From Candidatus Xenobia bacterium (GTDB lineage: Bacteria; Vulcanimicrobiota; Xenobia; Xenobiales; QWHO01): DNA of 64,000 nucleotides. Within the stretch, counting starts at the first letter, position 1. Each line of letters begins with the position of its first letter. The translations under genes and the position numbers were made by a program. Below, piece after piece: positions 4,581 through 23,600 of the stretch. The notes beneath the pieces were generated by a model. It searched no databases. It saw only the letters and a program-made list of their open reading frames with translations, and was not told the DNA's origin. Location of the stretch: NCBI GenBank assembly GCA_045863235.1, contig BTUM01000037.1, positions 9,697-73,696 of the forward strand. Direction: 5' to 3'.

Positions 4581-5411
4581 ATGAGCGAGCAGATAGACTG
4601 CAAAAGCTATCGCCCGCTGCTGGAGGACTTCGTGGACGGCGAGGTCGAGCCGGGGCAGTTGGGCAACCTGCAAGAGCACCTGAGGGATTGCCCCGAGTGC
4701 TTCGCCCGGGTGGAGTTCATGCGCCGGCTGCAAGGCGTGGTGCGTCAGGCGGTGCCCCCCGAGACCACGCCCGAGCTCTTACGTCGGCGCATCGAGAAGA
4801 GCTTCAAGGTCAATCCCTGGCAACGCCGCATGAGCCAGCCCTGGGTGCGGCCCGCCCTGGCAGCGGCCTGCCTGCTGATCCTGCTGGCAGGGCTCTTCGC
4901 CCTCTTCCCTCGCGAATCCAGGCCCAGCCCCTGGGCTGTGGCCATGGTGAACGACCACACCATGTGCTGGATGATGGGCTGCGGTCAAGCCGACCCGAGC
5001 GGCTTTGAGAAGAAGATCGCGGGATTCCTGGGTACCAAACCGGATGTTCCCACGCTGCAGCAGTCCCAGCGCCTGGACGTAAAACCCTGCCCGGTCAAGG
5101 GCTCGGTGGCCAGTGCCCACGTCTTTTATCTCAGACGGGGCAAGGTGCAGCTCTCGATGTACTTCGCCAAACAGGACGAGTGGACCGGCCAGTTGCCCGA
5201 CTCGCCCCAGCAAGCTCGCCTCGACGCCGTCGAGTTCGACGGTAAGACCTATCAGGTGGCCAGCTGGCGGCGTAAGGGGATGGTGACAGGCCTGGTGGCG
5301 GATATCTCGCGAGAGGACATGAAAGCACTGTCGGGAGCGACGAAGTACGACGCCAAAGGCCAGGCTGTGATTCCGGGAGCCGTGCTGGTGGCTTCGGTCA
5401 GCTCGCCTTAG
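4581..5411 (+). CDS. Zinc-binding (ZAS, zf-HC2) transmembrane anti-sigma factor
   Basis: C...FVDGE...HLRDCPEC, one TM helix, extracytoplasmic domain. Confidence 0.85.
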   Translation: MSEQIDCKSYRPLLEDFVDGEVEPGQLGNLQEHLRDCPECFARVEFMRRLQGVVRQAVPPETTPELLRRRIEKSFKVNPWQRRMSQPWVRPALAAACLLILLAGLFALFPRESRPSPWAVAMVNDHTMCWMMGCGQADPSGFEKKIAGFLGTKPDVPTLQQSQRLDVKPCPVKGSVASAHVFYLRRGKVQLSMYFAKQDEWTGQLPDSPQQARLDAVEFDGKTYQVASWRRKGMVTGLVADISREDMKALSGATKYDAKGQAVIPGAVLVASVSSP

Positions 5412-8400: not shown

Positions 8401-8784
8401 AATCTGGAGGAGCTTGGGACCCTTGGGCAGCTCGACCACGCGCGAGGCCGATGGAGCCTTTTCGGGGACGAGCTCCGTTGGAGGCTGCCTCGGGGTCGCG
8501 GGAGGAGGGGCGGCCGGGCCATCTTCCTCAACAGGCGCCACTGGCTCGTCGAGTTGAGCGAGGGCCGTCGGGACGGACGTCGTCGCCGGGACCGGGGCCA
8601 CTTCGGCCAGGTCGGCTGGAAGCTGTTTCTTGTCAGCCTTGCGTTCGTTCCGGGGTCTGGCGGTCTGGGTGAACTGATCGCTGGGAGCGACCGCCTCGGG
8701 CTCTCCCGTGCCCTGCTGCTGACCGGAAGCAGGCTGAGGCAGGCCCGAAACCATCGGGTCGAGCGCGCGCAGCCTCATATCCAT
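5398..8784 (-). CDS. secA: Divergent SecA paralogue with long disordered N-terminus
   Basis: MKTGEGKT, VTVNDYL, DEVDEILIDEARTPL, GLHQALEAKE, TNMAGRGVDI, YAQKDP; no SEC-C tail; start could be 8796, 8784 or 8778. Confidence 0.9.
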   Translation of the reverse strand: MDMRLRALDPMVSGLPQPASGQQQGTGEPEAVAPSDQFTQTARPRNERKADKKQLPADLAEVAPVPATTSVPTALAQLDEPVAPVEEDGPAAPPPATPRQPPTELVPEKAPSASRVVELPKGPKLLQILSGAIRASKRIGLGLLSVVGTDPLKQVQAEQKKVNDLEPGLDAAIAARASELRAAGQTGDVDLEAARQIVQGKTVEFRRRLADGESLDSMKVEAFAVARKAAQVVLKMRPYDVQVQGGLAMTEGRISEMKTGEGKTLTAIMPLYLYGLTGKGAHLVTVNDYLVKRDFEQMKPAFEFLGLTVGCVHEGVENPDKKKAYACDVTYITNHSLGFDFLRDQSAREPELRVQRAPHFALVDEVDEILIDEARTPLILSSLSEAAGDEHRIFDILVKSLEPGRDFKTNQKDHYAYVTDEGLDRVECMLAAVDADEKKGQAALKLRSLPPGTPMEEVQAASRAFDQAHKASQAAQKLVQAQNLLRTATTEEEKQQAQAEIDSLRGAAPSYSLYSLDNVRRVFFLQNALMANALYEKDQDYLAANDQVQIVDVFKGRTMDGRRFTNGLHQALEAKEGVTIQPYQRTQASITYPDLFRRYPHLAGMSGTAMSAASEFHEAYKLDVVAIPTNKPKDLKTDHDVIFRTMQEKFEFVADLIEELYKEGKPVLVGTRSIPANKYLSHLLAKRGIYHQVLNAERVQDNTDEEARILADAGRSGMVTLATNMAGRGVDIKPDLVNYKLLAMKAEVACKRGEFVVVDVEKPRDAEQVRDWLASDSLPTQILAEGEAIQDGATGIVIRIKPTDPPPEGSAHFDGRTEEFETGGLHLIMTERHESERIDLQLIGRPARQGQPGYGRALLSLEDELLQYFGGPKLAEFFDAMGIPPGKGVSDERLDEMVREAQRAVEGKWYEVRKDTTKYGEVLNKQREAFSASRDKLVNREANVGDLVLDWLPRSLAHQAFYSHAEREWVAKGSQEDEVVEVPGSMKADAVKQALTELSQKFGVPFDVDLGKKKKVTEEELEELLRPQVEAHYQAAAARMPAEDLAFYQRKVLLDVADEGWMNHLENMEALRHGIGMEAYAQKDPWIQYQHRAFDMYQGLLQAVQYEASSEIFRQMLIEAREQQTKAS

Positions 8785-8886: not shown

Positions 8887-10182
8887 ATGAGTTTGCAGCG
8901 GGGCTCGGCTCTGATGATGGAGGGCCGCTACGACGAGGCTTTGAGCGCCTTCGAGGCGGCTGCCCACAGCCAGCCGAAGGCGGCCGGGCCGCTCATCCAA
9001 CAAGCTCTGTGCCAAATGGCGCTGGGCCAGCCCGGGCCGGCCAACGACCTGTTGACCCGGGCCCTGGAGCTCGAGCCGGACAACCCGGCTCCTCACCTCT
9101 TCGCTGGCCTCTGTCGCTCGGACCTCGGCGACCATGAAGCTGCCGAGCTCTGTCTGCAGACCGTCAAGAAGCTCTCTCCCGACCACCAGGCGGTGGACAC
9201 CGTGCGGGCCATCCTCAACCTGCGCCGGGGCAACCTGGAGAAGGCTGTGGCCTACCTGGGCGGCCATCCCGACCTCTCCCTCTCCTCCCCCATCATCAGC
9301 CGCCTGGTACTGGAGGTCGAGCGCCGCCTGCTACCGGCCGAGATCCCTCTGTTGCGCCGGGCTAAAGCTCGCATCCTGTCCCCGGATGAGGAGAAGGCGC
9401 CTCCCTCTCCCGGCCTGTTCGGATTGGCCCGCTCCATGGGCGCCTGGCGCGCCCAGTCGTCGGGCCGCAAGCTGGTCGAGAAAGCCATGCGCACTCCCCC
9501 CGGCTCCGAGCGCCGCAGGGGGCTGCTCGATCGGGCCGTGACCCGGTTGCGCGAGGCGCGCGATGCCGACCCCTCCCAGTTTCGGGCCGACTTCTACCTG
9601 GCCGAGGCGCTCCTTTACGCCAGTCGACCAGGCGAAGGAGCGGAGGCGCTGCGCGAGAGCCGCGAGGGATTCCTGATCTCCTGGCAGCACGAAGGCGAGA
9701 ATCCCTACCTGCTCTACTACCTGGGTCGGGTCACCCTGCTCCTGGGGGAGGTGGAGGCCTCCATCGAATACTTCGAGCGCGGGCTCTCCAAGTTCGCCAA
9801 GTTTCCCGAGGCGCACTACGGCCTGGGTCAGTGCTGGCTGCTCAAGGGCGACGCCAACCGGGCTCGGGATTACTTCGCCCTGGCGCTGCGCTCGGATACT
9901 TTCATCATGCGTGACCGCCTGTTCGAGTTGATCAGCCGGTACGAAGGTGACCGGGGCTCACTCGACCGGTCCATGCCCGAGTGGGAGCCGGAGCCAGAGC
10001 TCGCTCTGACCGACAGCGAGCCTGCCTCGGAGGACCCGCCCGGGCCGGGGCCGCGGGCCCCCCAGCCGGAGCCCGGCACCCATTCGGAGCCGGACACAGA
10101 GAGCCAGCCTGAGCCAGGGCCCGAGGCCCACCCCGTTGAGAGGGCTTCAACCTCCGAGGCACCCTCGGAGAAGCCCCTGTAA
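8887..10182 (+). CDS. TPR repeat protein with acidic/Pro-rich tail
   Basis: Multiple TPR-like units (ALELEPDNP, YYLGRV, EAHYGLGQC). Confidence 0.8.
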   Translation: MSLQRGSALMMEGRYDEALSAFEAAAHSQPKAAGPLIQQALCQMALGQPGPANDLLTRALELEPDNPAPHLFAGLCRSDLGDHEAAELCLQTVKKLSPDHQAVDTVRAILNLRRGNLEKAVAYLGGHPDLSLSSPIISRLVLEVERRLLPAEIPLLRRAKARILSPDEEKAPPSPGLFGLARSMGAWRAQSSGRKLVEKAMRTPPGSERRRGLLDRAVTRLREARDADPSQFRADFYLAEALLYASRPGEGAEALRESREGFLISWQHEGENPYLLYYLGRVTLLLGEVEASIEYFERGLSKFAKFPEAHYGLGQCWLLKGDANRARDYFALALRSDTFIMRDRLFELISRYEGDRGSLDRSMPEWEPEPELALTDSEPASEDPPGPGPRAPQPEPGTHSEPDTESQPEPGPEAHPVERASTSEAPSEKPL

Positions 10183-10222
10183 CATCGAGGTAACAAGATT
10201 CGACCCCGCCCCGTGCTAGGAT
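10178..10222 (+). promoter_or_regulatory. TAACA direct-repeat box plus extended -10
   Basis: TGTAACA-N4-GGTAACA-N21-TAGGAT, -10 preceded by TGC; same geometry as the secA promoter. Confidence 0.6.
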
Positions 10223-10263
10223 GGCCCCCGGGGAAATCTGCGGGTGAAAGGATCCAGGGGCTC

Positions 10264-11886
10264 GTGCAGCTTTCGGCTTACAATTCCAGTCTGGCGTTCC
10301 GGCTCCCCAGCCCGGCCGCCCGCGAGGAATCCAGTGCTGCCCAGATGGATCTGCCTTTCCTGGCCCTCTCCGGTGGAGACAGCTACAACGGCGTGGTGGA
10401 GGGTACCAACGAGCGTCAGAACCCCTTCATCGTCGTCCCCAAGGACCTGCTCACCCGGGCCAAGACGCCCAACCAGGTGGTGCAGGACCTCTCCCGCCTC
10501 AATGTCCCGGTCAATGCAGAAATTCCCCTGATCAACGGCTATACGGTGGTGATGAACGAGGACGAGCGCCGGCGCGTCGAGCAGGCCGGCTATCAGGTCA
10601 TGCCCGACCTGTCGGACAAGTTCCTCTTGCCCAGCCCCTGGGAGCGCAAGCCCGAAGAGAACGTCGAGACCATCGCCACCGAGCCGGCCACCCCTACCAC
10701 CCCCCGGGCAACCCTGACCGAGCCGCGCTACGCCTCTCCCCTGACCCAGCAGTTCACCGGTCGCGGCGTTGGGATCGCCATCATCGACACGGGCATCTAT
10801 CCCCACCCCGACTTCAACTTCCCCCACAGCCGGATCGTGGCTTTCCAGGACTTCGTCAATGGCAGCACGCTCGCCTACGACGACAACGGCCACGGTACCC
10901 ACACGGCCGGCGATGCGGCTGGCAACGGCTTTCTGTCGGAAGGCCTCTATCGGGGGGCCGCTCCCGAGGCCAACCTGGTGGGCATCAAGGTGCTGGACAA
11001 GAATGGCAACGGCACCACCTCCAACATCCTTAAGGGGATCAACTGGGCGGTCGAGAACAAGGAGCAGTACAACATCCGGGTCATCAACCTCTCGCTCGGC
11101 TCGAGCCAGCGTTGGGCGCATCGCCGTCAGGACCCCATCCAGCAGGCGGTGGAGAAGGCGGTGGACGCGGGCATCGTGGTGGTGGTCTCGGCTGGCAACG
11201 AAGGCCCCTATCCCGGCACGATCAGCGCGCCGGGCGACAACCCCCGCGTGATCACGGTGGGCGCCCTGGACGACCGCAACACCCCCGACCCCTCCGACGA
11301 CCGCATTCCGTCCTTCTCCAGCCGGGGCAAGTCGGACACCATGAAGCCCGACCTGGTGGCTCCCGGCGAGGGGATCATCGGGCCCAACGCTCCCGGCACC
11401 ATCAGCGAAGCCACCGCCCGCAAGTACGGGGCCGTCCAGAAGACCCTGTCCTGGCTCGACAGGATGCGCGACGAGGAGCTGGTGCACGTGCCCGAGGATA
11501 CGCTGCGGCTGATCGGCCTGAATCCGAGCTCGATCCAGCGTTTCAAGAACTCCCCCCAGACCGCCCGCTCGGAGATCAACCGGCTGATCGAGACCACCAA
11601 CCGCCTGCCCATGGTGTCGAGCAACTACCTGGGCATGCCGGGCACCTCCATGGCCGCTCCCATCGTGGCCGGGGTGGTGGCCCAGGTGCTGGAGGCAAAC
11701 CCGCACCTTTCCCCTGACGAGGTCAAGCAGGTGCTGCGCCAGAGCGCCACCCAGCTTCCCGGCTACGGTCGCGAGGCCCAGGGCTCGGGCGCGGTCAACC
11801 CGGACCGAGCCATCGAGCTCGCTCTGCAGAAGCTGGATGAGGGCGACCGGAACGGCCAGTTGCACCTGCCCCTGGAGCAACTCTGA
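10264..11886 (+). CDS. S8 subtilase (AprX-like), no signal peptide
   Basis: IDTG, GHGTH, SAGNEG, GTSMAAP; GTG 10264 chosen because it lies downstream of the promoter. Confidence 0.9.
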   Translation: MQLSAYNSSLAFRLPSPAAREESSAAQMDLPFLALSGGDSYNGVVEGTNERQNPFIVVPKDLLTRAKTPNQVVQDLSRLNVPVNAEIPLINGYTVVMNEDERRRVEQAGYQVMPDLSDKFLLPSPWERKPEENVETIATEPATPTTPRATLTEPRYASPLTQQFTGRGVGIAIIDTGIYPHPDFNFPHSRIVAFQDFVNGSTLAYDDNGHGTHTAGDAAGNGFLSEGLYRGAAPEANLVGIKVLDKNGNGTTSNILKGINWAVENKEQYNIRVINLSLGSSQRWAHRRQDPIQQAVEKAVDAGIVVVVSAGNEGPYPGTISAPGDNPRVITVGALDDRNTPDPSDDRIPSFSSRGKSDTMKPDLVAPGEGIIGPNAPGTISEATARKYGAVQKTLSWLDRMRDEELVHVPEDTLRLIGLNPSSIQRFKNSPQTARSEINRLIETTNRLPMVSSNYLGMPGTSMAAPIVAGVVAQVLEANPHLSPDEVKQVLRQSATQLPGYGREAQGSGAVNPDRAIELALQKLDEGDRNGQLHLPLEQL

Positions 11887-12848
11887 TGAAGGTGGCCGCC
11901 GCTCCCGCTCCGTTACCCCGCCTGGCCGAGCACCGGCCCCAGCGCGCCGCCAGCCTGGGACTGCCGGAGGATACCCTCTTTCTGAGCAAGCTCCCGCCCA
12001 TCGAGGGCGACTTCCCCCCACCCCCACCCGACCTCAAGCGCCCGGTCTTGATCGTGCACGGCTTCAACGGCGCCGCCCTGGACTTTTTCAACATGCGCAA
12101 CTACCTGGCGTCCAACCCCAGAAACAAGCTCGGCGCCACTTTTCACCCCGGTAAGGAGGACGAGTTCCGGGCTTCCCTGCGCGAGAAGCCGGACGGTCGC
12201 ATCCATACCATCAGCTTCTCCAAGCCTTACCTGAGCTATCGCGAGCTGCAGGCCGAGCTGACCGCCTGTCTGAAGGTTCTCAACGAGGAGACAGGCGGCG
12301 AGGTGGACGTGATCACCCACTCGATGGGAGGGCTGGCCACCCGGGCCCACCTCGACCAGGGACATGACGGCATCGATAAGCTGATCATGATCGCGCCTCC
12401 CAACCGGGGTAGCCTGGAAGCAGACCTGGCCCTGGCCGCCGACCGGCTCAACCTTTACAGCCACTACATTCCCGAGGCCAAAGATGCGCTGCGCGACCTG
12501 ACCCTGGACGAAGAGTTTCTGGGCAAGCAGAACAATCCGTATCTGAACGGATTGAACCAGCGCTGGGCCGAGCAGAGCGCCAAAGTGCAGGCCACCATCA
12601 TCGCCGGGTTGGGGATTCCCACTCCCGACTGGAACTGGAAGCTTTTTTCGCAGGGCGACGGCATGGTGACGGCCAGCAGCACCTACATGCCAGGAGCCCG
12701 GTTCGCCGTCACCGACGTGGAGCATCCAGCCGGAATCGAGCGTGAGGGCGACAGCGGCAACCGGCTGTTTACCTTCAAGTACAACCACGGCAGCCTGGTC
12801 AGCGACCCGACGATCCAGCAGTTCGTGGGGCAGATCCTGGGAAGCTAA
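11886..12848 (+). CDS. Alpha/beta hydrolase (lipase/esterase)
   Basis: VHGF, HSMGG nucleophile elbow, PNRGS, GDGMV, C-terminal His; TGATG coupling to the subtilase. Confidence 0.85.
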   Translation: MKVAAAPAPLPRLAEHRPQRAASLGLPEDTLFLSKLPPIEGDFPPPPPDLKRPVLIVHGFNGAALDFFNMRNYLASNPRNKLGATFHPGKEDEFRASLREKPDGRIHTISFSKPYLSYRELQAELTACLKVLNEETGGEVDVITHSMGGLATRAHLDQGHDGIDKLIMIAPPNRGSLEADLALAADRLNLYSHYIPEAKDALRDLTLDEEFLGKQNNPYLNGLNQRWAEQSAKVQATIIAGLGIPTPDWNWKLFSQGDGMVTASSTYMPGARFAVTDVEHPAGIEREGDSGNRLFTFKYNHGSLVSDPTIQQFVGQILGS

Positions 12849-12875: not shown

Positions 12876-13979
12876 TCAGAGTTTCTCCAGGGTCGCCCCC
12901 CGGTAGTAGTGGCGCAAGATGGCCTGGTAGCCCATGTGCTTCTCCCCCATCACCAGCGCCCCCCACTGGCATAAGCCCACCCCGTGGCCCCAGCCCCCGC
13001 CCTGAAAGTGCAGGCTGACCGGCCTGCCGTTTTGCTCCTTGACACTCATCTTGCAGCGGGTGCTGCGCAGCTCGCGGTAGCCCAGGATGCGTCGAAAATC
13101 CTGGCTCTTCTCGCGATACTCATGCCCCTGATCGTCCTTGACGGTGATGAAGTTCATCCGGCCTGACGGATCGTGGCCGCTGACCACCACCGAGGTGATG
13201 GTCCCCAGAGGCTTGCCATCGGCGGCAAAGCGCTTGCGCACCGTCTCGATGGGGAACGAGCGGCTCCAGTGCGAGCCGGCCGTTCCGGCGCAGTAAGGGT
13301 CGGGAACGCCCTTGATGAAGGGCACCTTGGGACCGAAGACGGGCTCGGAGTCGGAGGTGTGCCCGCCGCAGTTGGAGCTGTAGTAGGCTTTCAGGACGCG
13401 GCCGTCAGCCCCCTTGAGCACCTGACCCCGGGTGTCGTCGAGCGCGCCGCGCGAGGAGAACGACTCGCCGTCCAGGCCTGCGTAGACCTGGTCCTGGTCG
13501 GTGGCCACCAGGTCGTACTCGCTGTCGCGCGGGTCGCCGAGCAGGTAGACGGCGTAGGTGCGGGCCGCCACCGCCAGGGCGCGCTGGGTGGGTCCGGGCC
13601 AGTCAGCGGGGATCTCGCCCCCCACCACCCCGGCCAGGTAATCCTCGAGGTTGAGGACGTTGACCGCCACCAGCTTGCCCTCGCGCTCGAAGACGCGCAG
13701 GTAGCCTCGATAGCCGCGCCCGTTCCAGTAGAAGACGCCCGAGGCGGGCACGAACATGACGTCCTTTTCCGGAAAGCCCGGACGGAAGGTCACCTGTCCC
13801 TGGCCTTTGCGCAGCACCTGGGCGCCGGCGGTGGACTTGAGGGTGTAAGCATCCGACTCGACCGTGCAACTCGAGCCCTTCTCCTGCAGAGCGATCCGCA
13901 CCCGAGTCTGGGCCAGCGTGAGCTGACTGAGCAAAAGGAACAGCACCAACGTCAAAGGGCAACAATTCTTTAAAGCCAA
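12876..13979 (-). CDS. SpoIID/LytB domain lytic transglycosylase-like protein
   Basis: LEDYLAGVVGGE, AVAARTYA, DQVYAG, GWGHGVGLCQWGA, ILRHYY; signal peptide; TTG start uncertain. Confidence 0.88.
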   Translation of the reverse strand: MALKNCCPLTLVLFLLLSQLTLAQTRVRIALQEKGSSCTVESDAYTLKSTAGAQVLRKGQGQVTFRPGFPEKDVMFVPASGVFYWNGRGYRGYLRVFEREGKLVAVNVLNLEDYLAGVVGGEIPADWPGPTQRALAVAARTYAVYLLGDPRDSEYDLVATDQDQVYAGLDGESFSSRGALDDTRGQVLKGADGRVLKAYYSSNCGGHTSDSEPVFGPKVPFIKGVPDPYCAGTAGSHWSRSFPIETVRKRFAADGKPLGTITSVVVSGHDPSGRMNFITVKDDQGHEYREKSQDFRRILGYRELRSTRCKMSVKEQNGRPVSLHFQGGGWGHGVGLCQWGALVMGEKHMGYQAILRHYYRGATLEKL

Positions 13980-14001
13980 TTTCAGGGCTCCGAGGTAGAT
14001 T
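13968..14001 (+). promoter_or_regulatory. YTTMAG direct-repeat promoter
   Basis: CTTTAAA-GCCA-ATTTCAG-N10-TAGATT. Confidence 0.6.
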
Positions 14002-14013
14002 AAGGTCGATACC

Positions 14014-15930
14014 ATGCAAAATCTGACCGGCGGCATTACGGGAAAGTTCCTCGGTTCTCCTACCTTCGAGGAGGCCAGGCGCAAGCTGCGCGAGGCTGGG
14101 CAGCGCGAGGAAGCGCGCGGCCACGAGCTCGATGCGCGCGGCCGCGACCGCGTCGAGCAGGGCTCTCAGGATGCCGAGCAGGCCGCCGAGGACAGGCAGC
14201 AGGCGCTGAACGACCGGGCCGCCGCCCAGAAGCAGTGGAAGAAGGCCGAAAAACTCCAGGCCAGCTCGCTCAAGAAGATTGCCGATGGGATGGGCCTCAT
14301 CGGTCTGGCCGCAACCCTGCAGGCAGCCGCCCAGGCCCGCATCAATGAAGGGTTGAGCCAGCAGCAGCAGGCAGGCCAGCTCAAGGATAAAGGTCTCAAG
14401 GACGTCTCCAACGGACTCGCTCGCCAGGAGAAGGCCGAGCAGGGCCAGCAAGCCCAGGTCGAGCGACTGCAGCAGGCCTTTGCCGGCGAGGCTCAGGCCG
14501 AGGCTCTGAAAGACGAGGGGCGCGCCGGCGTGGGCCAGGGGCTGCGCCAGGAGGCTCAGGCCGAGCGTTTGCAGCAGAGCGGAGTCGAGACTCTCGCCTC
14601 TGGTCTGGCCGAGCAGCAGGCGGCCGAGCAGATCAAGGACGCCGGCCGGGAGAAGATCGGACGGGGCATCGACCAGCGTAACCTGGGCGGGGTCTACCTC
14701 GAGCAGGCCGCCCTGGGCCACCAGCAGGCCAGCCAGTTGCAGGGAGAAGCCGGTGCCAAGCGCACCCGGGCTCAAGCTCTGGAGATCCTGGCTCAGGCCG
14801 CCCAGCAGCGGGCCCAGCAGGCTTTGCAGCAAGTGCAGGCCCTGGTGCAGCAGGTAGCGCGCTTGACTCAGGAATCGACGCAGGCCAGCGGAGCCGCCGC
14901 CACGCTCGAGTCGGAGGGCCAGCACTTGAGCAGCCAGTCGCGCTGCTGGGGCCAGCGGGGCCAGCAGAACATCGCTCACGGGCGCTATCTGCAGCAGTGC
15001 CCCTTCCAGTATTGCGCCGGCCTGGAGCTCGAGCGCCAGGGCTTCGCCGAACTCAACTACGCCAACCAGCTGTGGGCCCAGGCCCAGGCCAAGCAGGGCC
15101 AGGCCAGCCAGCAGCGCCAGCTGTCCGAGGCCAGGCACGCCGAGGCTGAGCAGACTCGCTTTCGGGCGGCAGCCCTGGCCGGTCAGGCCTCGGGCGACTT
15201 TGCCCGGGCCAACCAGCAGCGCCAGGAAGCCGGGGGCCTGGTGCAGGCGGCCGCGGCCCAGGAGTTGCGGGCCGGCGAGATCTCCCTGCAAGCTCACCAG
15301 CTTCAGCAGCAGGGGCTGGGGCTGCGCGAGCAGGGCCAGCAGCTGATCGATGCCGGGCGCACCGAGGTGGCCACCGGTCAGGCCCGCGAAACAGCCGCTC
15401 AGGGCCAGATGACCCGGGGGCTGGGTCAGTTCGACCAGGGCCGGGCCGACGAGCAGCAGGCCCGCAATACCGAGTTGGACGGGCTGGGCAAGATCCAGCA
15501 GGGCTTCACCCAGGAAGCTCCCTTCCGGGCCGAGGAGCGGGACGCCCTCAAGGAGTTCCGCGCCTGGCGAGCCAAAGAGAAGACGGCCCACAGTCGCCAA
15601 CAGATGGGCCTGGGCAAGCTCGAGCAGGGCCTGGAGCAGTCCCAAGCTGGTCGCCAGGAGGGCGACGCCGGAGTGGCCGATTTCCGCGAGGGACAGAAAG
15701 TCGAGCGGCGAGGCGCCTCCAAGGTGGAGGCCGGTCAGGAGAAGCTCACTCAGGCCCGCTCTGCCCTGGATCAGGCCCGCGCCCGGGCCGCTGCGGCCCA
15801 GGATGAGTTGCGCCGGGCCGAAGAGCTCGAGCGCCAGGCCCAGCGCGAGATCGAGCTGGGGCAGTCCGAGCAGGCTGCCGGCCAGGTCATCGCCGGCAAG
15901 GGGCGAGCCTACCAGCAAGCCGCCGGATAA
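14014..15930 (+). CDS. Gln/Ala/Gly-rich coiled-coil hairpin protein A (638 aa)
   Basis: Gly-heptad periodicity, 3 Pro, central QCPFQYC turn; paralogue of 17191-19059. Confidence 0.8.
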   Translation: MQNLTGGITGKFLGSPTFEEARRKLREAGQREEARGHELDARGRDRVEQGSQDAEQAAEDRQQALNDRAAAQKQWKKAEKLQASSLKKIADGMGLIGLAATLQAAAQARINEGLSQQQQAGQLKDKGLKDVSNGLARQEKAEQGQQAQVERLQQAFAGEAQAEALKDEGRAGVGQGLRQEAQAERLQQSGVETLASGLAEQQAAEQIKDAGREKIGRGIDQRNLGGVYLEQAALGHQQASQLQGEAGAKRTRAQALEILAQAAQQRAQQALQQVQALVQQVARLTQESTQASGAAATLESEGQHLSSQSRCWGQRGQQNIAHGRYLQQCPFQYCAGLELERQGFAELNYANQLWAQAQAKQGQASQQRQLSEARHAEAEQTRFRAAALAGQASGDFARANQQRQEAGGLVQAAAAQELRAGEISLQAHQLQQQGLGLREQGQQLIDAGRTEVATGQARETAAQGQMTRGLGQFDQGRADEQQARNTELDGLGKIQQGFTQEAPFRAEERDALKEFRAWRAKEKTAHSRQQMGLGKLEQGLEQSQAGRQEGDAGVADFREGQKVERRGASKVEAGQEKLTQARSALDQARARAAAAQDELRRAEELERQAQREIELGQSEQAAGQVIAGKGRAYQQAAG

Positions 15931-16005
15931 CTTCGCACGCCGTTGCAACTGACTTAAGGCGCCGCGCGTCAGAGGATCCCGCTCGGGGTTCTGGAAAGCC
16001 CGCCC

Positions 16006-17145
16006 ATGCGGCTCTTTGAGGGCATCCGCTTCGATCGCAACGAACTGGCCGGGGCTTTTGGCGACCTGGGCACCGTGCTGCCCCTCATCGTGGGGATGAT
16101 CCTGGCCGCCCGGCTCGACTGCGCCAGCGTGCTGATCATGTTCGGGCTGATGCAGATTTTCACCGGACTGCGCTACCGGATCCCCATGCCGGTTCAGCCC
16201 CTGAAAGCCATGGCCACACTGGTGATCGCCCAGAAGCTGACCGGCTCCATCCTTTACGGTGCCGGGCTGGCCATCGGCATGGTCATGCTCTTCTTGACCA
16301 TGTCAGGCCTGTTGGCCCGGCTGGGGCGCGCCATCCCCACCACGGTGGTGCGCGGTCTGCAATTTGGCCTCGCCCTGCAACTCGGCATCCTGGCGCTGCG
16401 CGAGTACGTGCCTTCGGCCGGTCCCTCGGGGATGGCCCTGGCCCTGGTCGCCTTCCTGGTCGGCCTGGCCTTCCTGGGCAATCGGCGCATCCCGGCGGCG
16501 CTCCTCCTGGTCGGGCTGGGGGCGGCCTTCGCCGCCTTGAAGCTCCAGCCAGGCCAGGTGACCGGCGCCTTCGCTTTGCACCTGCCGCAGTTTCACGTGC
16601 CCGGCTGGTCCGACATCGCCCAGGGCTTCCTGCTGCTGGCCATCCCGCAGCTGCCGCTTTCGCTGGGCAACTCCATCCTGGCCACCCGCCAGGTTTCCCA
16701 CGATCTTTTTCCCGAGCGCGCGGTGGACCTGAAGACCATCGGGCTGACCTACTCATTGATGAACCTGGTCAATCCTTTCCTGGGCGGCATCCCGACCTGC
16801 CACGGGGCGGGTGGCATGGCCGGGCACCACGCCTTCGGCGGGCGCACCGGGGGCTCGGTGGTGATCTGCGGGCTGGCCTTCATCGCCGTGGGGCTCTTCC
16901 TGAGCCAGGGCTTCGCAGCCATGGTGGCGGCCTTTCCTCTGCCCGTGCTGGGGGTCTTGCTCTTGTTCGAGGCCCTCAGCCTGATCGGGCTGACCCGGCT
17001 GGCCACCTCCTCGCGGGGCGACTTCCTGGTGGTGGCTCTGGTGGGGCTGCTGGCGGTTGGCCTCCCTTACGGATTTCTGATCGGCATGCTGGTGGGCACC
17101 CTGGTGGTGGCCCTCTCGCCCCATCTGAGCTACTTCCGTACATGA
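16006..17145 (+). CDS. MOT1-family molybdate/sulfate transporter
   Basis: GAFGDLGT, PMPVQPLKA, CHGAGGMAGH..FGGRTG. Confidence 0.88.
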   Translation: MRLFEGIRFDRNELAGAFGDLGTVLPLIVGMILAARLDCASVLIMFGLMQIFTGLRYRIPMPVQPLKAMATLVIAQKLTGSILYGAGLAIGMVMLFLTMSGLLARLGRAIPTTVVRGLQFGLALQLGILALREYVPSAGPSGMALALVAFLVGLAFLGNRRIPAALLLVGLGAAFAALKLQPGQVTGAFALHLPQFHVPGWSDIAQGFLLLAIPQLPLSLGNSILATRQVSHDLFPERAVDLKTIGLTYSLMNLVNPFLGGIPTCHGAGGMAGHHAFGGRTGGSVVICGLAFIAVGLFLSQGFAAMVAAFPLPVLGVLLLFEALSLIGLTRLATSSRGDFLVVALVGLLAVGLPYGFLIGMLVGTLVVALSPHLSYFRT

Positions 17146-17177
17146 AAAAGCCCACCGCTCGGGGCGGTGGGCTTTTT
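17145..17177. terminator. Bidirectional intrinsic terminator
   Basis: AAAAAGCCCACCGC-TCGGG-GCGGTGGGCTTTTT between convergent genes. Confidence 0.9.
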
Positions 17178-17190
17178 CCGAGGTCTACCC

Positions 17191-19059
17191 TCAGCTCTTC
17201 TGGCCGGCGATGTAGCCCGGAATCGCGTTGGAGAGCTCCACGTACTGGTTGCCCTTCTCTTCGATCACGCGGCCAGCCGCCTCGCGGTTGGTGCCTTCCT
17301 GGATGTCGCGCTCGCCGGTGCGAACCGACTCGGTGCCCCGCTTGACCTGGGAGTTGCCCTCGTCCACTTTCTGTTTGCCAGCGTGCTCGGCGGCGTCGCC
17401 CGCGTTGACCTCGGTGAGACCACCAGCCTGGTCGGCCCGACCGGCGGCTTCCTCGACCTGACCGGCCACGATCTTGTCCAGAGCGGCGGTGCGGACGGCC
17501 TGGGAGGCTTCCTGGTCCTGACGGGCCTGACCCACCAGGTCGAGACCCTGCTGCTGGACATCCAGCACCTGGGCCATCAGGTTGACACCCGCGGTCAGCT
17601 GCTGCAGAGCCACCAGGCGCTCCTGGCGGGCGGTGCCCACCTGGGCCTGACCCTGACCGATGGTACCCAATCCGGCTTCCTGCTCGGCGGCGCCGGCCAC
17701 TTCCTGATCCAGACCCTGGCGGATCTTGTCCAGGCTGGCTGCCATCTGCGACTTACCGGCGTTGCGGCGAGCCACGCCGTCGGCGACCTCCTGGTTACCC
17801 TGGGTTTCCAGAGCGGCGCTCTGGGCCAGGTGCTGCTGGGAGGCCTGAGCGGCCTCGGCGGCGGCGGTGCGGTCGGCGGCGGCCGACTGGAGCAGCGCGG
17901 CGGCTTCACCTTCGAGGCGGGTGGCAAGAGCGGTCAGGTAAGCGGCGTTCTCGGTGTGGTGCGAGGCCTCAGCGGTGAGCTTCTCGGACCGGTGCGCCTG
18001 CACCTGAGACTCGTGGTGACGCACGGTGGCCACGTCGCGGGTCAAGAGGCCCTCGGTGACGGTGGCGGCGCCCTCGTCCACGTAGCCCGGGATGTCCAGC
18101 AAGGTCGTGCCCGCGCTGGCGTCGATGGCGGCCTTGCGGGCCAACAGGTCGGACAGCTTCTGGGAAGTCTGGCTCTTGGCGTTCTCTACGATCGACTCGG
18201 CCTGGCGCTGGGCCCCTTCCTGGGCGCAGTGAGTGGCGTGAGTGCGAGACTCGGCAGCCTCGGCCTGCTTGGCGGCGGCCTCGGCCTCGGAGTCGGTGGC
18301 GCGGGCGGTCAGTGCCTCGGAGCGGGCCTGGGCGTCCAGGCCTTTGCGCTTCTCGGAGTGGGACTGGCGCAGGTGGCCGCGGCCGTCGCGGATCAGGGCG
18401 CGACCGGCGTCGGTCTCGGCCATGGCCTGGCGGAACTCGCCCACGCCCTGGTCGACCGTGGTGGCCCCGGCCTGCTCGGTGTTGAATCCGGCCGTCAGAG
18501 CGGTCAGACCGCTCTCGACCAGCGCCTGACCCTGTTTGGCCTGCTGCAACTGGGCACCGAAGTCAGCCGACTTCTGGTCCACGAACTGGCCCACGCTCTC
18601 TTCCAGCACCAGCGCCGTGGCCAGCACCTGGGCTCCGCCCTGGGCAACCTGCTGAGCCTCTCCGGCCGAGTTCAGTCCGCCCTGGAACTCCTGAATGCCC
18701 TGCTGCTCGTTGGCCCCGCCAGCGCTCTCGCGATTCAGACCGTTGACGATCTGCTGCTGACCGGCCAGCTGGCGCTCCAGGCCGGTCTGAATCTGGGCCT
18801 GGCCTTCGGCCGCTTTCTGGTTGCCATCGGCGATGGCCTGGTTGCCAGCCTGGCGTCCTGCCTCGCCGCGCTGCTTCTGGTCCGCGCCGCTGGTCTGCAT
18901 GTCGCGGCCGCGGGCGGCCTCTTGCTCACCTTTCTCGCGGAGCTGGCGGGCTGCTTCGGCCGGATCCTGCTCGTCGATGATGGCTCTCTTCTGTTTGCCG
19001 GCAGCGCTCTGCGACGCGGTGTAGACGCTGGCGGTAAAGTTGGTACTCAGGCTGACCAT
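17191..19059 (-). CDS. Coiled-coil hairpin protein B
   Basis: GGGGAGG RBS 10 nt before ATG 19059; Gly heptads; only 3 Pro, evenly spaced. Confidence 0.8.
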   Translation of the reverse strand: MVSLSTNFTASVYTASQSAAGKQKRAIIDEQDPAEAARQLREKGEQEAARGRDMQTSGADQKQRGEAGRQAGNQAIADGNQKAAEGQAQIQTGLERQLAGQQQIVNGLNRESAGGANEQQGIQEFQGGLNSAGEAQQVAQGGAQVLATALVLEESVGQFVDQKSADFGAQLQQAKQGQALVESGLTALTAGFNTEQAGATTVDQGVGEFRQAMAETDAGRALIRDGRGHLRQSHSEKRKGLDAQARSEALTARATDSEAEAAAKQAEAAESRTHATHCAQEGAQRQAESIVENAKSQTSQKLSDLLARKAAIDASAGTTLLDIPGYVDEGAATVTEGLLTRDVATVRHHESQVQAHRSEKLTAEASHHTENAAYLTALATRLEGEAAALLQSAAADRTAAAEAAQASQQHLAQSAALETQGNQEVADGVARRNAGKSQMAASLDKIRQGLDQEVAGAAEQEAGLGTIGQGQAQVGTARQERLVALQQLTAGVNLMAQVLDVQQQGLDLVGQARQDQEASQAVRTAALDKIVAGQVEEAAGRADQAGGLTEVNAGDAAEHAGKQKVDEGNSQVKRGTESVRTGERDIQEGTNREAAGRVIEEKGNQYVELSNAIPGYIAGQKS

Positions 19060-19113
19060 TTGTTTCATGCCTCCCCAAAATTTGGACAATACTTGTCTCT
19101 CTCGTTCCGCGTC

Positions 19114-19169
19114 AGTATGGCATCACGAACTGAAACCATGCTTAAACGGGCTGTTGACAGGCTGTTAAC
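19114..19169 (-). promoter_or_regulatory. Four 11-bp-phased boxes plus -10
   Basis: GTTAACA-N4-GTCAACA-N4-GTTTAAG-N4-GTTTCAG-N10-CATACT. Confidence 0.7.
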
Positions 19170-19214: not shown

Positions 19215-20372
19215 ATGCCGTTCTACCATCGACTCGGGCAGCTGCCCGCCAAGCGTCATACCCAGTTTCGTAAGCCCGATGGCTCGCTTTTCCGCGAAGA
19301 GCTGATGGGCCAGGAAGGCTTTTCGGGCATCCAGAGCATCCTCTATCACCACTTCATGCCTACCGAGGTGCTCAAAGTGGACTGGCTCGGACAGGCTAAA
19401 CCCAAGCTGGTGGACTTCGGGGGATTGCGGGCCCGCCAGTTCCGCACTCGCCAGTTCCCGGCCGGAGGGGACGCGCTGGAGAGCCGGCGGGCCATCCTGG
19501 GCAATGCCGACGTCATCTTGTACCTGTCGCGCCCAACCCGCTCGATGGAGCACTTCTACCGCAATGGCCAGGCCTATGAGTGCTGGTTCTGCCACGAGGG
19601 TCAGGGCGTGTTTCGCAGCCAGTTCGGCCAGTTGCCCTTCAGCGCAGGAGACTACGTGGTGCTGCCTTTCGGGGTCACCTGGCAATTGCGCCTGGAGAGC
19701 AGCGAGGCTCGCTTCCTGGTGATGGAGGCGCCTTCCCAATTTGCCCCTCCCAGGCGCTACCTCAATCACTACGGCCAGTTGCTCGAGCACGCTCCCTACT
19801 GCGAACGCGACATCAAGGTCCCCATCGAGCTCGAGACCTACACCGATGAAGGCGAGTTCGAGGTCCACGTGAAGGCCCGCGACGAGCTGCACCGTCACAT
19901 CATGCGCCACCATCCCTTTGGCGTGGTCGGCTGGGACGGCTTCCTCTACCCCTGGTCGTTCAATATCGCCAACTTCGAGCCCATCACCGGGCGTGTGCAC
20001 CAGCCCCCGCCCGTGCACCAGACCTTCGAGGCTCACAACTTCGTGGTGTGCAGCTTCGTGCCGCGCCTGTTCGACTACCATCCCGAGGCCATTCCAGCGC
20101 CCTACGTTCACAGCAACGTCAATTCCGACGAGGTTCTCTATTATGTGGACGGAGATTTCATGAGCCGGCGCGGGGTCGATAAGTACGACTTTACCCTCCA
20201 TCCCGGCGGGCTTCCCCACGGGCCCCAGCCCGGGGCCACCGAGGCTTCCATCGGCCAGGCGAAAACCGAGGAGCTGGCCGTGATGGTGGATACCTTCCGT
20301 CCCCTGCAGGTGGCCGAGGAGGGACTGGCCTTCGAGCTGCCCGAGTATGCCTATAGCTGGGTCGAAAAGTAG
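19215..20372 (+). CDS. hmgA: Homogentisate 1,2-dioxygenase
   Basis: KRHTQFR, HPFGVVGWDG, GRVHQPPPVH, HSNVNSDE, LHPGGLPHGP, ELAVMVDTF. Confidence 0.93.
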   Translation: MPFYHRLGQLPAKRHTQFRKPDGSLFREELMGQEGFSGIQSILYHHFMPTEVLKVDWLGQAKPKLVDFGGLRARQFRTRQFPAGGDALESRRAILGNADVILYLSRPTRSMEHFYRNGQAYECWFCHEGQGVFRSQFGQLPFSAGDYVVLPFGVTWQLRLESSEARFLVMEAPSQFAPPRRYLNHYGQLLEHAPYCERDIKVPIELETYTDEGEFEVHVKARDELHRHIMRHHPFGVVGWDGFLYPWSFNIANFEPITGRVHQPPPVHQTFEAHNFVVCSFVPRLFDYHPEAIPAPYVHSNVNSDEVLYYVDGDFMSRRGVDKYDFTLHPGGLPHGPQPGATEASIGQAKTEELAVMVDTFRPLQVAEEGLAFELPEYAYSWVEK

Positions 20373-20612: not shown

Positions 20613-23600
20613 TTAGGTGCGCTCCATCACGCGCAGGAAAGCGTCGATCAACACCGGGTCGAACTGGGTCCCCGAGCCGTCGCGCAGCGTCTGCAGTGCA
20701 TTCTCGACACTGAACGGCTCCCCATCGGGGCCTCCGGCCAGGAGATCCTCGAAGTGGTCGGCCACGGCGATGATGCGCGAGGCCAGCGGGATGTCGCGCC
20801 CGGCCAGCCCATCGGGATAGCCGTCGCCGTCCCAGCGCTCATGGTGGCTGCGGATGATCGGTCCCAGGTGTTTCAGCGAGCCGATCTGGTTCATGATCTC
20901 CTCGCCGTAGATGGGGTGCTTCTTGAGCTCCTCCAACTCGGCGCTGGTCAGCTCGTCGGGCGGCTTGGCCAGGATCTCCTCGGGCACCTGAATCTTGCCC
21001 ACGTCGCGCAGGATGGTGGAAGCGTGCAGAGCGCGCAGGTTGAGCGGACCCTGCTCTTTGAGGAAGTCGGCCATCTCCTCGATCTTCTCGTCGGAGGCAC
21101 CTCCCAGAGCGATGCCCACCTGACCGATGTCGATCAGCATGGCGCCGTCTCGGATCTGCTTGCGGGTGCGGAAGTCGTTGATGCCCAGCTCGTCGGCCAT
21201 GGCCATGGCGTGCTGCATCACCTTCTCGGAGCGCTCGGTGGATTGCCCGCCCATCTTGAGCATCACGCCCAGGCTGTGCAGAGCAGCATCTTCGTCCAGG
21301 TCCTGGAGGTCGCCGAGCTCTTTCTCTTTGTTGGCCTTCTTCAGCAGGCTGGTGACGGCCGAGGCGGCGTGGCGGTTGGCGACCGACTCGAGCTGCACGG
21401 AATCCATCTCCGACGCTCCCAAGGTGGCTGCGCGATGGGTTTCCTGAGCCTCGGCCTCCTCGGCGCCCTCGGGCTGCATGGCCGCCATGATGGCTGCCAG
21501 TGCCGTATTGGTCGAATTCTGGGTCTGAGCCGGACCCCGACCCAGACCGTGGGCCGAGTGACGGTCGGCGCCGCGGTCATCGCCGCCCTGCCCCTGATCG
21601 CCCGAGCCAAAGCCAGACTCTTGTTGCTGGGACTGCTGGTTCGCCTGGGCGCCCTGAGCCGAAGCTTGCCGGACGGTGCCGGCCAGAGTCGGCGCGAGAC
21701 GATTGGCGGCCCCGGTGGTGGGCTCGGAGTGTTTGTCAAAGCGAGCGTCCTCGGATCCGAATGCCTGGCGCTCGTTTCGCTCGGCGGCCCGCCACTGGGT
21801 CAGGGTCTCCTGACGCAGATCCTGGGTGGGCTCGCGTCGACGCTCGATGGGCGAGATGGGCAGGATCCCGTCCTGCTGCGAGTCCAAAGCCATATCCTCG
21901 GAGGAGGCTGCAGCCGCCTCGCGCACATCGGAAGAGGTGCTGCTGGCTTGAGTGGTCACGCGCTGCGGGGTGGGTCGCAACCCCAGTTGGATGGCCGAGG
22001 TGCCGGCCTCGGCGGGCGCCTGGGTTCGCTCGCTGGCCAGCTCGCGCTCCACCGCTGCGGCCGCCGGCTGAGAGGCAGCTTGGATCGCCTGCGGGGCCAG
22101 CGGGCCGGCCAGGTTGGGACGCACGGGCGCAGGGGGCAGAGTGGGCGTGGCGGGAGCCTCGGCCAACGGCTCTCGGGCTGTCGGGGCCGTGGAAGCCCGC
22201 GCGGTCTCCGGCTCGGGAGCCGAAGGCGCCGGAGGGGCAGTGGGAAGCGTGGTCGAGCGCCGCTGGGCGGCGGCCACCGCCGGCGGACCCTCGGGCGGCC
22301 CCACCGGCGCGGTCATGGCCGGGCGCACCTCGGCGGCCGCCGGGCGATAGGCCTCGCTGGCCGGTCCAGCCGGGGCGCCCAACGGGAGCGAAGTGCCGGG
22401 CGCCGTTCGGGGCCGCTCGCCGGCGAAGGCAGCACTGGTTCCAGATGGACTCACGGAACGACCGGGCCCTTCGGAACGAGGAGAGCCCTCGCTGCCCCGA
22501 GGGGCGCCCGGGGCCGCGCTCTCGCCCGTGCGGGCGGTCTCGACCGCTGAGACCCGCTGGGGGTCGGTGCGACTGGTCTCGCTGGTGGCCTGCACGGCCA
22601 CCGAGGTGCTCCGGCCGGCGTCCTCGCCGCGCCGGGCAGGCTCGGCCGCGCTGCCCTCGTTACGGGGAGCTGTGTTGGCGCGGGCCGGCTCACCGGTTAC
22701 GCTGGCCCGTCTTTCGGTTTCTTGACCGCTCGGAGGAGGGGCGGCAGCGCGGGCAGGCTCTTCGGCGGTCGCTCCGCGACGGCCTTCGGTCGGTCTGGAG
22801 GGCTCACCGGACTGCTCGGACCGGTTCTCGGCACGTGCTTCCGCGCGTGCTTCGCTGCGCGGCGCATCGACCCGGGACGGTTCGGAGGCGTGCGATTCCC
22901 CACGAGTCTCGGAGCGAGCCTCGCGGTTCTCGCCTCGCACCTCGACTCGGGCTTCACCTCTGGCTTCGGAGCGTGCCTCAGCTCGTGCCTCGGCCCGGGC
23001 TGGCTCGACCTCACGGGCGTCGCTGCGCTGTGCGTCCGCCGCGCGGCTGGCCTCTTCCACTCGGCGAGGTTCACCACTGTTCTCTCGACGAGTCTCGGCG
23101 GCAGGCGCCGGGGGCTCATTGCGCGGGGCCTCCGCCTGGCGGACCTGCTCGCTGCGCTGAGGCTGTCCCTCGCTTCGTGGCCCTTCGGACGCTCGGACCG
23201 GCTCTGCCTCGGAGCGGGCGGGCTCGTTGCGCGGAGCCTCGGCCTGCCGGGCGACCTCGTTACGCTGCCCCTCGGAGCGGGCCGGCTCGTTGCGCTGGCC
23301 CTCGGTCGGACGGGCCGGCTCACCCTCGGCGCGGGCTGGCTCGTTGCGTGGAGCCTCGGCCGGGCGGGCGGGCTCATTGCGTTGGCCTTCGGCGGGACGG
23401 GCCGGCTCGGTGGCACGGGTCTGCTCCCCACGTGGTGCCTCAGCTTCAGACCGGGCCGCCCGGGTCTCGGGCTGGTTGTTGCTGGCTGGCGCCTCAGTTG
23501 GGCGCGGTCGCTCATCACCACGGTTAGCGGGCGGCTGGGCCGGGGCCGGACGCTCCTCGCCCGTGCGTCCGGTCGTTTCCACCGTGGTCGTCATGCGCTC

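Follow-up and report, generated by a model that had tools for sequence, protein, structure and literature searches.

The window analysed here, a stretch of 64,000 nucleotides from a Candidatus Xenobia bacterium (assembly GCA_045863235.1, contig BTUM01000037.1, positions 9,697 to 73,696 of the forward strand), contains two convergent genes, here termed A and B, whose products are predicted to fold into long helical hairpin rods. Gene A (14014..15930, forward strand) encodes a protein of 638 aa with a short N-terminal leader, followed by predicted helices at residues 16–326 and 333–637, which correspond to a rod of ~46 nm. Gene B (17191..19059, reverse strand) encodes a protein of 622 aa with a leader rich in Ser, Thr and Asn, predicted helices 36–324 and 330–614 (~43 nm), a conserved helix at the tip (K312, D316, E332) and, at the C-terminus, a tail of the form (I/V)P(F/Y). 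The ATG at 19059 is probably the true start of B, because a GGAGG sequence is well spaced to this codon alone, M4 is nearly invariant, and the Atlas record begins there; the residue numbers of B, including those of the helices, count from the ATG at 19068 (P0002). Upstream of A (13959..14001, forward strand) we found a direct-repeat box of the TT(A/C)ACA type (13959–13975) and a -10-like element TAGATT (13996–14001). Upstream of B (19114..19168, reverse strand) there is a box TTAACA-N5-TCAACA (19152–19168), a third repeat near 19141–19146, and a -10-like CATACT (19114–19119). The promoter motif common to both genes, noted already in the preliminary description of this locus, corresponds to the last repeat of the box, located 26–27 nt before the -10 element. 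A scan with the sigma-70 consensus identified no promoter.

The tip of A (residues 311–343, 14944..15042, forward strand) comprises the hairpin turn with the invariant Pro330 and aromatic and Cys residues, which follow the family pattern C-P-F/W-x-Y-x-x-G: among relatives P330 is found in 41/41 sequences, F/W331 in 37/41 and C329 in 31/41. The preliminary description placed all three cysteines of A at the tip, which is correct (C311, C329, C334), and overlooked a third proline, P503, which is Pro in only 4/41 relatives. It also regarded the "SPTF" sequence at the N-terminus of A as an echo of the turn, a notion that we abandon, as this Pro too is present in just 4/41 relatives and the element is not conserved. 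B contains only three prolines, P36, P327 and P617, with the reported spacings of 291 and 290, and IPGY indeed occurs both at the turn (326–329) and at the C-terminus (616–619); the exact double IPGY is genus-specific, with Pro found at the tip in 20/40 and in the tail in 26/40 family members. As stated earlier, neither protein exhibits a Sec signal, nor a transmembrane segment: the highest hydropathy of any 19-residue stretch is 1.09 for each of the two and does not exceed 1.56 among 67 sequences of the family.

Judged by their sequences, A and B are true paralogues. The preliminary description aligned them at the N-end, the centre and the C-end, and profile-profile comparison with hhalign reproduces this relationship over the whole length (probability 99.94%, E 4e-37): 590 columns are colinear, and the tips and ends fall into register. 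Plain BLASTP detects only the C-terminal third (E 2e-7). Composition as the source of the similarity can be ruled out by hhalign and by shuffling: the local alignment score of 419 compares with 162±17 for shuffled residues, 208±17 (maximum 261) for shuffled heptad blocks and 241±20 (maximum 307) for shuffled 21-residue blocks, with 300 shuffles each. A quick tree, built from 81 sequences, unites A in one group and B in another (SH-aLRT 100), with a similar internal order, and the pairwise identities within A and within B correlate across 27 paired genomes (r 0.96), a value that kinship alone could produce. Both genes are single-copy in genomes of an Eremiobacterota/Xenobia-related clade, and the count of paralogues proposed earlier revealed no further copies in this genome, whether by composition-corrected tblastn, with profiles of the tip or in a scan for Gly heptads.

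The family records fall in Eremiobacterota/Vulcanimicrobiota. Profile searches at E 0.001 in 251 genomes of the phylum, including three unpublished ones (G212, G230, G247), none of which decides any claim by itself, found a match to A in 54 and to B in 48. If only strong matches are counted, leaving aside A/B cross-matches, contig-end fragments, short forms of A and weak repeat hits, full-length A is present in 40 genomes (with E of 2e-82 or lower; one A is split in two frames and some are cut by contig ends), full-length B in 35 (E at most 5e-97), and both in 32. Five genomes of family f14 (89–99% complete) possess A without B, and three genomes possess B without full A (one 78% complete, one with fragments of A at contig ends, and one 97% complete). 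An obligate A/B heterodimer is thus unlikely, because full-length A stands without B in five genomes of one family. No credible A or B was found in the 161 genomes of family f15, which gave only weak partial hits (2 to A, 1 to B), and no match to either in the 18 genomes of family f20. In all 14 genomes in which they share one contig, A and B are convergent and 0.3–25 kb apart (in one case A is a fragment at the contig end). The split A (L019:632–2553, genome G019) consists of two overlapping frames of 328 and 349 aa, and may be a broken gene or an assembly error; a record titled Burkholderiales (L142) with a B of 94% identity is probably a mislabelled bin of the genus to which the host belongs.

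Database searches placed neither protein in a known family. Pfam recognised no family at E 0.01 in 41 rows of the A alignment and only an unrelated repeat in 3/40 rows of B, and NCBIfam contained no fitting family for 30 A and 30 B rows. A search of 1.84 billion representative sequences with the B profile retrieved 15 proteins at 1e-30, all of them members of the A/B family or fragments thereof; lower in the list (50 of its 150 hits were scanned) come more members of A, interspersed with short partial matches, many of them to YhgE/Pip and other xxxLxxG repeats. The range outside the phylum rests on this search, whose strong matches are mostly without a taxon; a scan of contigs with B alone found three close relatives only. 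Word-indexed protein searches with single A or B sequences yielded nothing in 8000 scored candidates each, a failure that reflects low complexity, since relatives exist. The Atlas returned no feature hit for B and structure matches of TM at most 0.35 by query, and for the short form of A described below only leads under the threshold (0.76). In the literature, most subscription papers lying outside the search, we found no account of the A/B family or of the flagellin-less system of this lineage. On these grounds we rate the protein family as new in kind, its function being a matter of prediction.

AF2 models (from 30-sequence alignments) of both proteins consist of the two continuous helices delimited above, with pLDDT 87.4 and pTM 0.33 for A, and pLDDT 74.9 and pTM 0.37 for B; low pTM is expected for long rods and the global shape of the models is uncertain. 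Taking 1.485 Å per residue, the modelled rods are 42–46 nm long, as in the ~45-nm antiparallel hairpins envisaged in the preliminary description. In the top fold-search matches the aligned ranges are symmetric about the turn, with sums of 652–655 for B and 658–660 for A; both models therefore represent antiparallel hairpins of two ~290–310-residue helices. Support independent of the models is provided by the glycine profile of the family alignments, which appears mirrored at i+j = 653 in B (r 0.83) and at 659/666 in A (r 0.79/0.80). The heptad periodicity of Gly reported earlier is pronounced, with z-scores for Gly–Gly lags of 7/14/21/28 residues of 6.9/5.3/4.9/3.3 in A and 11.8/11.4/10.0/8.4 in B (500 shuffles). 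In each segment of the 43 A and 44 B sequences compared, Gly, Ala or Ser account for 74–98% of the residues at one position of the heptad, with zero phase slip; Gly prevails in the base half and Ala in the tip third.

A small-X6-small pattern with apolar +3/+4 positions is described in PMC12541321 as a motif of tight antiparallel packing of membrane helices that is seldom seen in soluble folds. The additional hydrophobic stripe at position +1 suggests a second packing interface. The best sequence matches in the PDB, weak and of low complexity, come from designed assemblies of four and six antiparallel helices (E 2.4e-4 and 0.0029, respectively; PMC11288890). Unlike the designed barrels sc-apCC-4 and sc-apCC-6-SLLA, A and B are natural soluble proteins that extend the motif over ~40 heptads per arm, with only 12–48% hydrophobic residues at the flanking positions +1, +3 and +4. 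Prediction of an A+B complex (residues 180–479 with 177–476) scored 0.22 and 0.00 against a mark of 0.32, which gives no verdict and is weighed neither way.

Fold searches retrieved only generic long coiled coils, with TM at most 0.34 by query in Foldseek and Z at most 14.1 in VIA; such generic matches alone do not make the fold of A and B new. The VIA list is headed by the cytoplasmic hairpin of a chemoreceptor (2ch7), together with SMC and PrgA. The match of 2ch7 to A (Z 14.1, rmsd 5.8, 309 aligned residues) and to B (Z 12.4; rmsd 5.8–6.8 and 308–309 aligned residues overall) ties with those of the SMC and PrgA coiled coils and lies within the range of the tool for unrelated long helices. 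Chemoreceptors resemble the models of A and B as long antiparallel hairpins, and their classes have equal arms that differ by whole heptads. Another likeness, to the YhgE/Pip/EsaA stalks (TIGR03057), was suggested in the preliminary description and holds at the level of the motif, as these stalks are long and helical, with Gly at each seventh residue and a hydrophobic residue three positions before; it does not extend to family membership. We consider it highly improbable that A and B are detached stalks of either kind with a role in type VII secretion or signalling. As such an origin would predict, xxxLxxG-repeat proteins abound among the weak matches of the library search and 2ch7 is among the best fold scores. 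However, these weak matches cover short stretches only, TIGR03057 matches 0/30 rows of B and 1/30 rows of A (E 0.033, under the curated cut-off), and the proteins show neither transmembrane anchors, such as the N- and C-terminal membrane domains of YhgE/Pip/EsaA (no match to TIGR03061/03062), nor HAMP or sensor domains. In contrast to the YhgE/Pip stalks, their small-residue stripe keeps a single phase over the whole length, with Ala taking over towards the tip; compared with chemoreceptors they are about twice as long, with 4–9% identity, no match to MCPsignal (PF00015), a different tip in which the conserved MCP tip was not seen, and no chemotaxis genes recognised among the neighbours. Profile and transmembrane results thus largely refute membership in either family.

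The length of the arms is nearly invariant. Between conserved anchors the arms of A measure 266 residues in 37/38 and 287 in 33/38 rows, and those of B 245 residues in 36/36 and 266 in 35/36 (rows gapped at an anchor, 3/41 of A and 4/40 of B, were left out), so that A is longer than B by exactly 21 residues, i.e. three heptads, per arm. These lengths hold although pairwise identities drop to 14–17%. Only the leader, the tail and the tip of A vary, this tip having 41 residues in 32/38 rows and up to 72 in deep-branching lineages, where it is also more hydrophobic, with added Pro, aromatic, Met and Cys residues. In Ca. Bruticola we found a short A of ~280 aa, which consists of a long S/P/N-rich leader and the tip half, without the stalk; its gene follows the TPR gene that also precedes full A in sister genera. 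The short protein aligns to residues 244–437 of A with 52 bits (the best of 300 heptad shuffles reached 12 bits and the reversed sequence 13), and is present in 9/10 Ca. Bruticola genomes, none of which has a credible B. As far as the alignments indicate, the tip of A is the most persistent element of the family. The stalk-less A keeps the tip, and the rod is therefore polar, with both termini at one end and a separately conserved tip at the other, which speaks against the equivalent ends postulated earlier. In Ca. Bruticola there is also a 352-aa protein (L105:4037–5089, forward strand), a short helical hairpin with a CPF turn that is weakly similar to the A tip (30 bits).

The idea of end-to-end assembly has a counterpart in the possibility that the two rods, either non-secreted or at the surface, assemble head to tail or laterally into a joint filament of a cytoskeletal or sheath-like type, in which the tail of B mimics a tip. 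Consistent with it are the absence of a Sec signal and transmembrane segment, the tip-like (I/V)P(F/Y) tail kept in 26/40 B rows, and the presence of ESCRT-III, PspA and Vipp1 hairpins among the generic fold matches. It would also accommodate a contig from a sludge RNA library that spans positions 17171–19090, from the terminator of B (a bidirectional intrinsic terminator at 17147..17180, hit on both strands, between the transporter gene discussed below and B) to just below its promoter. This contig is a weak hint at a monocistronic B transcript; the RNA runs were available as contigs only, two of the four extend over all 30 bins and could contain DNA, and they allow no ranking of expression. 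We regard a filament as quite unlikely: the rods are polar, the B tail is missing in whole sub-clades, the stalk-less A cannot form the same filament, and the type-III-like leaders and the regulon described next would be unexplained.

The TT(A/C)ACA repeats, spaced by 11 bp ahead of a -10-like element, recur upstream of A and B in other genera. A matrix learnt on 34 such regions was applied to 7039 script-called genes of the host genome (G000, 97.6% complete), and it scored the box of B at 18.8 bits (rank 29) and that of A at 13.6 bits (rank 198). At 14 bits or more the box precedes 177 of the 7039 genes, compared with 6 in shuffled upstream regions, and high ranks include a FlgG-like gene (27), flgB (196) and three of the needle-like genes described below (58, 158 and 268). 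Genes with the box encode leaders rich in S/T/P/N/Q (191 vs 6247 genes, p 7e-44), and DxVxLS motifs are commoner in them (21/191 vs 149/6247). Both features are marks of type III substrates. In the A/B family itself the leader score, a compositional measure of our own modelled on the bias of type III signals, exceeds the 90th percentile of non-box genes in 50/67 sequences. Forty box genes were scanned against Pfam, namely the top-ranked of 115 with at least 230 aa, in which B, a SecA paralogue and the FlgG-like gene were exchanged for lower ranks: 23 have no Pfam family, nine are hydrolases (four subtilases, a C11 protease, a GDSL lipase, an alpha/beta hydrolase, a peptidoglycan amidase and a zincin-like protein), one is FliK-like and one contains DUF1521.

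We take TT(A/C)ACA direct repeats at 11-bp spacing to be a box of the OmpR/PhoB type, and the 26 OmpR-type matches in the host genome are candidate regulators. The consensus presumably resembles the PhoP box of Bacillus, a likeness that our literature search did not confirm. A Pho regulon was considered and rejected, as PstS (TIGR00975) has no match in this genome (controls were positive in 12/14) and no PstS, PhoA or PhoD family was found among the 40 box genes. The SecA paralogue just mentioned is encoded in the window (5398–8784, reverse strand); it has a long low-complexity leader and a box of rank 8/7039, among the strongest of the genome, and may share the export regulon of A and B. Two Gly/Gln/Met-rich proteins, each with a box, recall harpins (L157, G000:C3:176105–177625, for which no Pfam family was found, and G000:C65:31461–32237).

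The host genome contains one cluster (L070:12349–20000 and L071:1–19220; G000:C27, about 54–79 kb) of FlhA-, FlhB-, FliP-, FliR-, FliO-, FliM-, FliG-, FliF-, FliH-, FliI-, FliJ-, FliE-, FlgB-, FlgC- and FliK-like genes, i.e. the flagellar-type export apparatus, C-ring, MS-ring and proximal rod. The searches detected no gene for flagellin, for the cap protein FliD or for the L-ring protein FlgH in this genome (controls were positive in 4, 3 and 3 of 14 genomes, respectively), and its sole MotA/ExbB match sits on another contig, away from the cluster. The FHIPEP gene occurs in 61/61 relatives and is not discriminating. LpxC is present, and the cell is therefore diderm. The cluster ends with three identical genes for a helical protein of 81 aa, which has nine matches in the host genome and matches in 53/251 genomes (none in families f15, f20 and f21), and for which no Pfam or PDB match was found; its size and position suggest a needle-like protein. 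A 473-aa protein encoded after these genes ends in a similar domain. Besides one full-length FlhA/SctV gene there are six further matches to this family (G000:C80:28012–29436 and five other places), of which the one inspected comprises the cytoplasmic domain only. As a whole, the cluster resembles an undescribed injectisome-like machine.

With such a machine at hand, A and B could serve as spacers or rulers of ~45 nm in the producer's own envelope or machine, for instance across the periplasm and a surface layer or along a needle. The near-invariant arms and a promoter box in common with rod and needle-like genes would fit this role, as would the outer part of the machine, which must be built differently given that no L-ring gene was found. 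Nevertheless we consider it improbable: FliK-like ruler proteins are already present, many relatives that bear the machine are devoid of A and B, and a ruler needs no conserved aromatic tip that outlasts the loss of the stalk.

We propose instead that A and B are type-III-exported rods that bundle side by side and bridge a fixed distance through the envelope of a target cell, serving against prey as an accessory extension of the needle or as the analogue of a translocon. We give this reading a probability of roughly 0.45. It builds on what the computations show, namely two paralogues with the geometry of a hairpin, a fixed length, polarity and a promoter box in common, together with the composition of the leaders and the presence of the export cluster, from which we infer export, oligomerisation, A–B contact, membrane contact and predation. 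The ancient pair would leave the cell through the flagellum-derived, flagellin-less type III system as structural rods without cargo, each folding into a ~45-nm hairpin that the small-X6-small pattern zips tightly. By way of the additional hydrophobic stripe the hairpins could pack into a bundle or narrow barrel, of A alone or of A with B; the designed helix assemblies weakly matched in the PDB would be in keeping with such bundling. If their bases are aligned, the aromatic/Cys tip of A would project ~3 nm (three heptads) past the tip of B and could contact or insert into the target membrane. The assembly would thereby bridge a fixed distance, most simply the envelope of the prey, so that the co-regulated hydrolases may act on the prey or enter it. 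Flagellar export systems have reportedly been re-used in non-flagellated predators, and Myxococcus is said to possess a needle-less system. Predation was proposed for the related Ca. Eudoremicrobiaceae (PMC9259500). A needle-associated role is more likely than a cytoplasmic filament because of the link to type III export and the shared promoter regulon.

The closest functional parallels would be the type III secretion system translocators SctE/SctB (IpaB/SipB/YopB and IpaC/YopD) and the filaments that extend the needle (EspA, Bsp22). Like A and B, these comprise two related helical proteins with a long coiled coil; they are exported by the type III machine and co-regulated with it, as A and B would be in our reading, and carry a hairpin tip directed to the membrane. 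A fragment of IpaB is among the generic fold hits to A and B (Z 8.8–9.3). In contrast to SctE/SctB, neither protein shows a sequence match to these families in Pfam (41 A and 40 B rows) or NCBIfam (30+30 rows); each chain is a single uninterrupted ~45-nm hairpin, dispensable where the machine is kept. SseC and YopD profiles had no match in the host genome, and the controls were silent as well, so that absence is not established. A bolder version, in which Xenobia and related Eremiobacterota classes built an injectisome-like machine from a flagellar basal body, separately from the classical injectisomes, and A and B form an envelope-piercing, hetero-oligomeric helical channel of a fixed ~45 nm, zipped by Gly/Ala heptads and long enough to cross the envelope of bacterial prey, a translocon without known homologue, appears doubtful to us.

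Several observations weigh against an envelope-spanning accessory of the needle. Secretion, interaction and localisation of A and B are computational inference only, and the designed proteins that they hit in the PDB match them by low-complexity sequence. Neither protein has the transmembrane hairpin of a translocator, and their genes lie outside the export cluster, without a dedicated class II chaperone of the TPR type; in the loci examined A and B never occur within that cluster. Genera g6 and g7 and families f5, f6, f7, f9, f10 and f17 have needle-like genes but neither A nor B, and conversely the needle query missed the A/B-positive genus g4 (0/6) and families f13 (0/5) and f8. A and B are thus not core parts of the machine, and their co-distribution with the needle-like protein is loose and confounded by kinship. 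The box is missing from two needle-like copies (ranks 771 and 4519), 101 windows reach 14 bits even in reverse complement, and the regulon is broad (about 180–280 genes), with non-secreted members such as an H+-PPase, a PALP enzyme, a PilC-like protein and a polysaccharide enzyme. As pointers to type III export, leader composition and box are both indirect; the 67 sequences behind the leader score are not independent, and A of this genome has a leader of only 15 residues, at the 73rd percentile.

Some of the same facts would suit rods that are exported and act off the needle, as a one- or two-component lytic or pore-forming device, in analogy to the multi-component alpha-helical pore formers or to the long hairpins of colicins and klebicins that thread outer-membrane channels. 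Such rods would also account for the box and leaders, for genes that stand apart from the export cluster and have disappeared from several lineages in which the cluster is retained, and for an aromatic tip that is hydrophobically expanded in deep relatives; KlebC (7nna, Z 10.4–10.8) and AhlB (Z 9.0–9.1) show a generic likeness. The multi-component toxins AhlABC, MakABE and Nhe/HBL and the TcA channel, of which AhlB and TcaA–TcaB appear as generic fold hits, are built of long helical hairpins, paralogous to one another, which line up laterally and point their tip towards the membrane. The toxin MakA leaves the cell by flagellar export (PMC6123715). A and B show no sequence similarity to these toxins, have much longer arms, apparently lack a hydrophobic tongue and are devoid of shell or cargo domains; nor are they encoded in one operon like the components of Ahl, Mak, Nhe and Yax, being convergent with separate promoters. 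The structural scores fall within the range of unrelated helical hairpins (AhlB aligns to the two-helix models with an rmsd of 38–48), there is neither a membrane-spanning hydrophobic hairpin nor a catalytic domain, and no conserved immunity-like neighbour was found among genes with a homologue in the host genome. Strict conservation of length fits a spacer better than a free toxin, and we judge free rods unlikely.

Whatever their role, A and B appear to represent an undescribed ancient family in which two uninterrupted helices of ~40 heptads are zipped by a stripe typical of short membrane helices, and a length held to the residue at 14–17% identity should be of interest to coiled-coil designers and structural biologists. 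If the rods are exported by the flagellin-less type III system, they offer a handle on the conversion of a flagellar basal body to an injection device and on the reach of type III secretion into walled bacterial prey. It will be interesting to compare the 281-aa tip-only form of gut Ca. Bruticola with the ~630-aa proteins of environmental lineages and with lineages that have A only, as the roles of tip, stalk and partner are directly testable in this way.

Among the other genes of the locus, a MOT1-type molybdate transporter (16006..17145, forward strand; PF16983, E 1.2e-49) lies between A and B. It is outside the A/B system, and other genes take its place in relatives. The gene of a TPR protein (8887..10182, forward strand) is syntenic with A in two families only: it adjoins A in family f3 alone (4 full-length and 9 short forms), lies 4 kb off in f1 and is unlinked in f2, and it is kept in genomes where A was not found. 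We therefore rejected this protein as a dedicated chaperone of A and regard it as a mere neighbour. Between the TPR gene and A (10213–12848, forward strand) there are a subtilase, whose box scores 12.6 bits, and, in translational coupling, an alpha/beta hydrolase whose leader is rich in Pro. On the reverse strand, positions 20613–25865 encode a protein of ~1750 aa with a repeat-rich T/E/P/R leader, a C-terminal HD domain and a box of 13.8 bits. A homogentisate-dioxygenase-like gene (19215–20372, forward strand) is divergent from B, with which it has the intergenic region in common, and a gene of this type also adjoins B in many loci of families f1 and f2.

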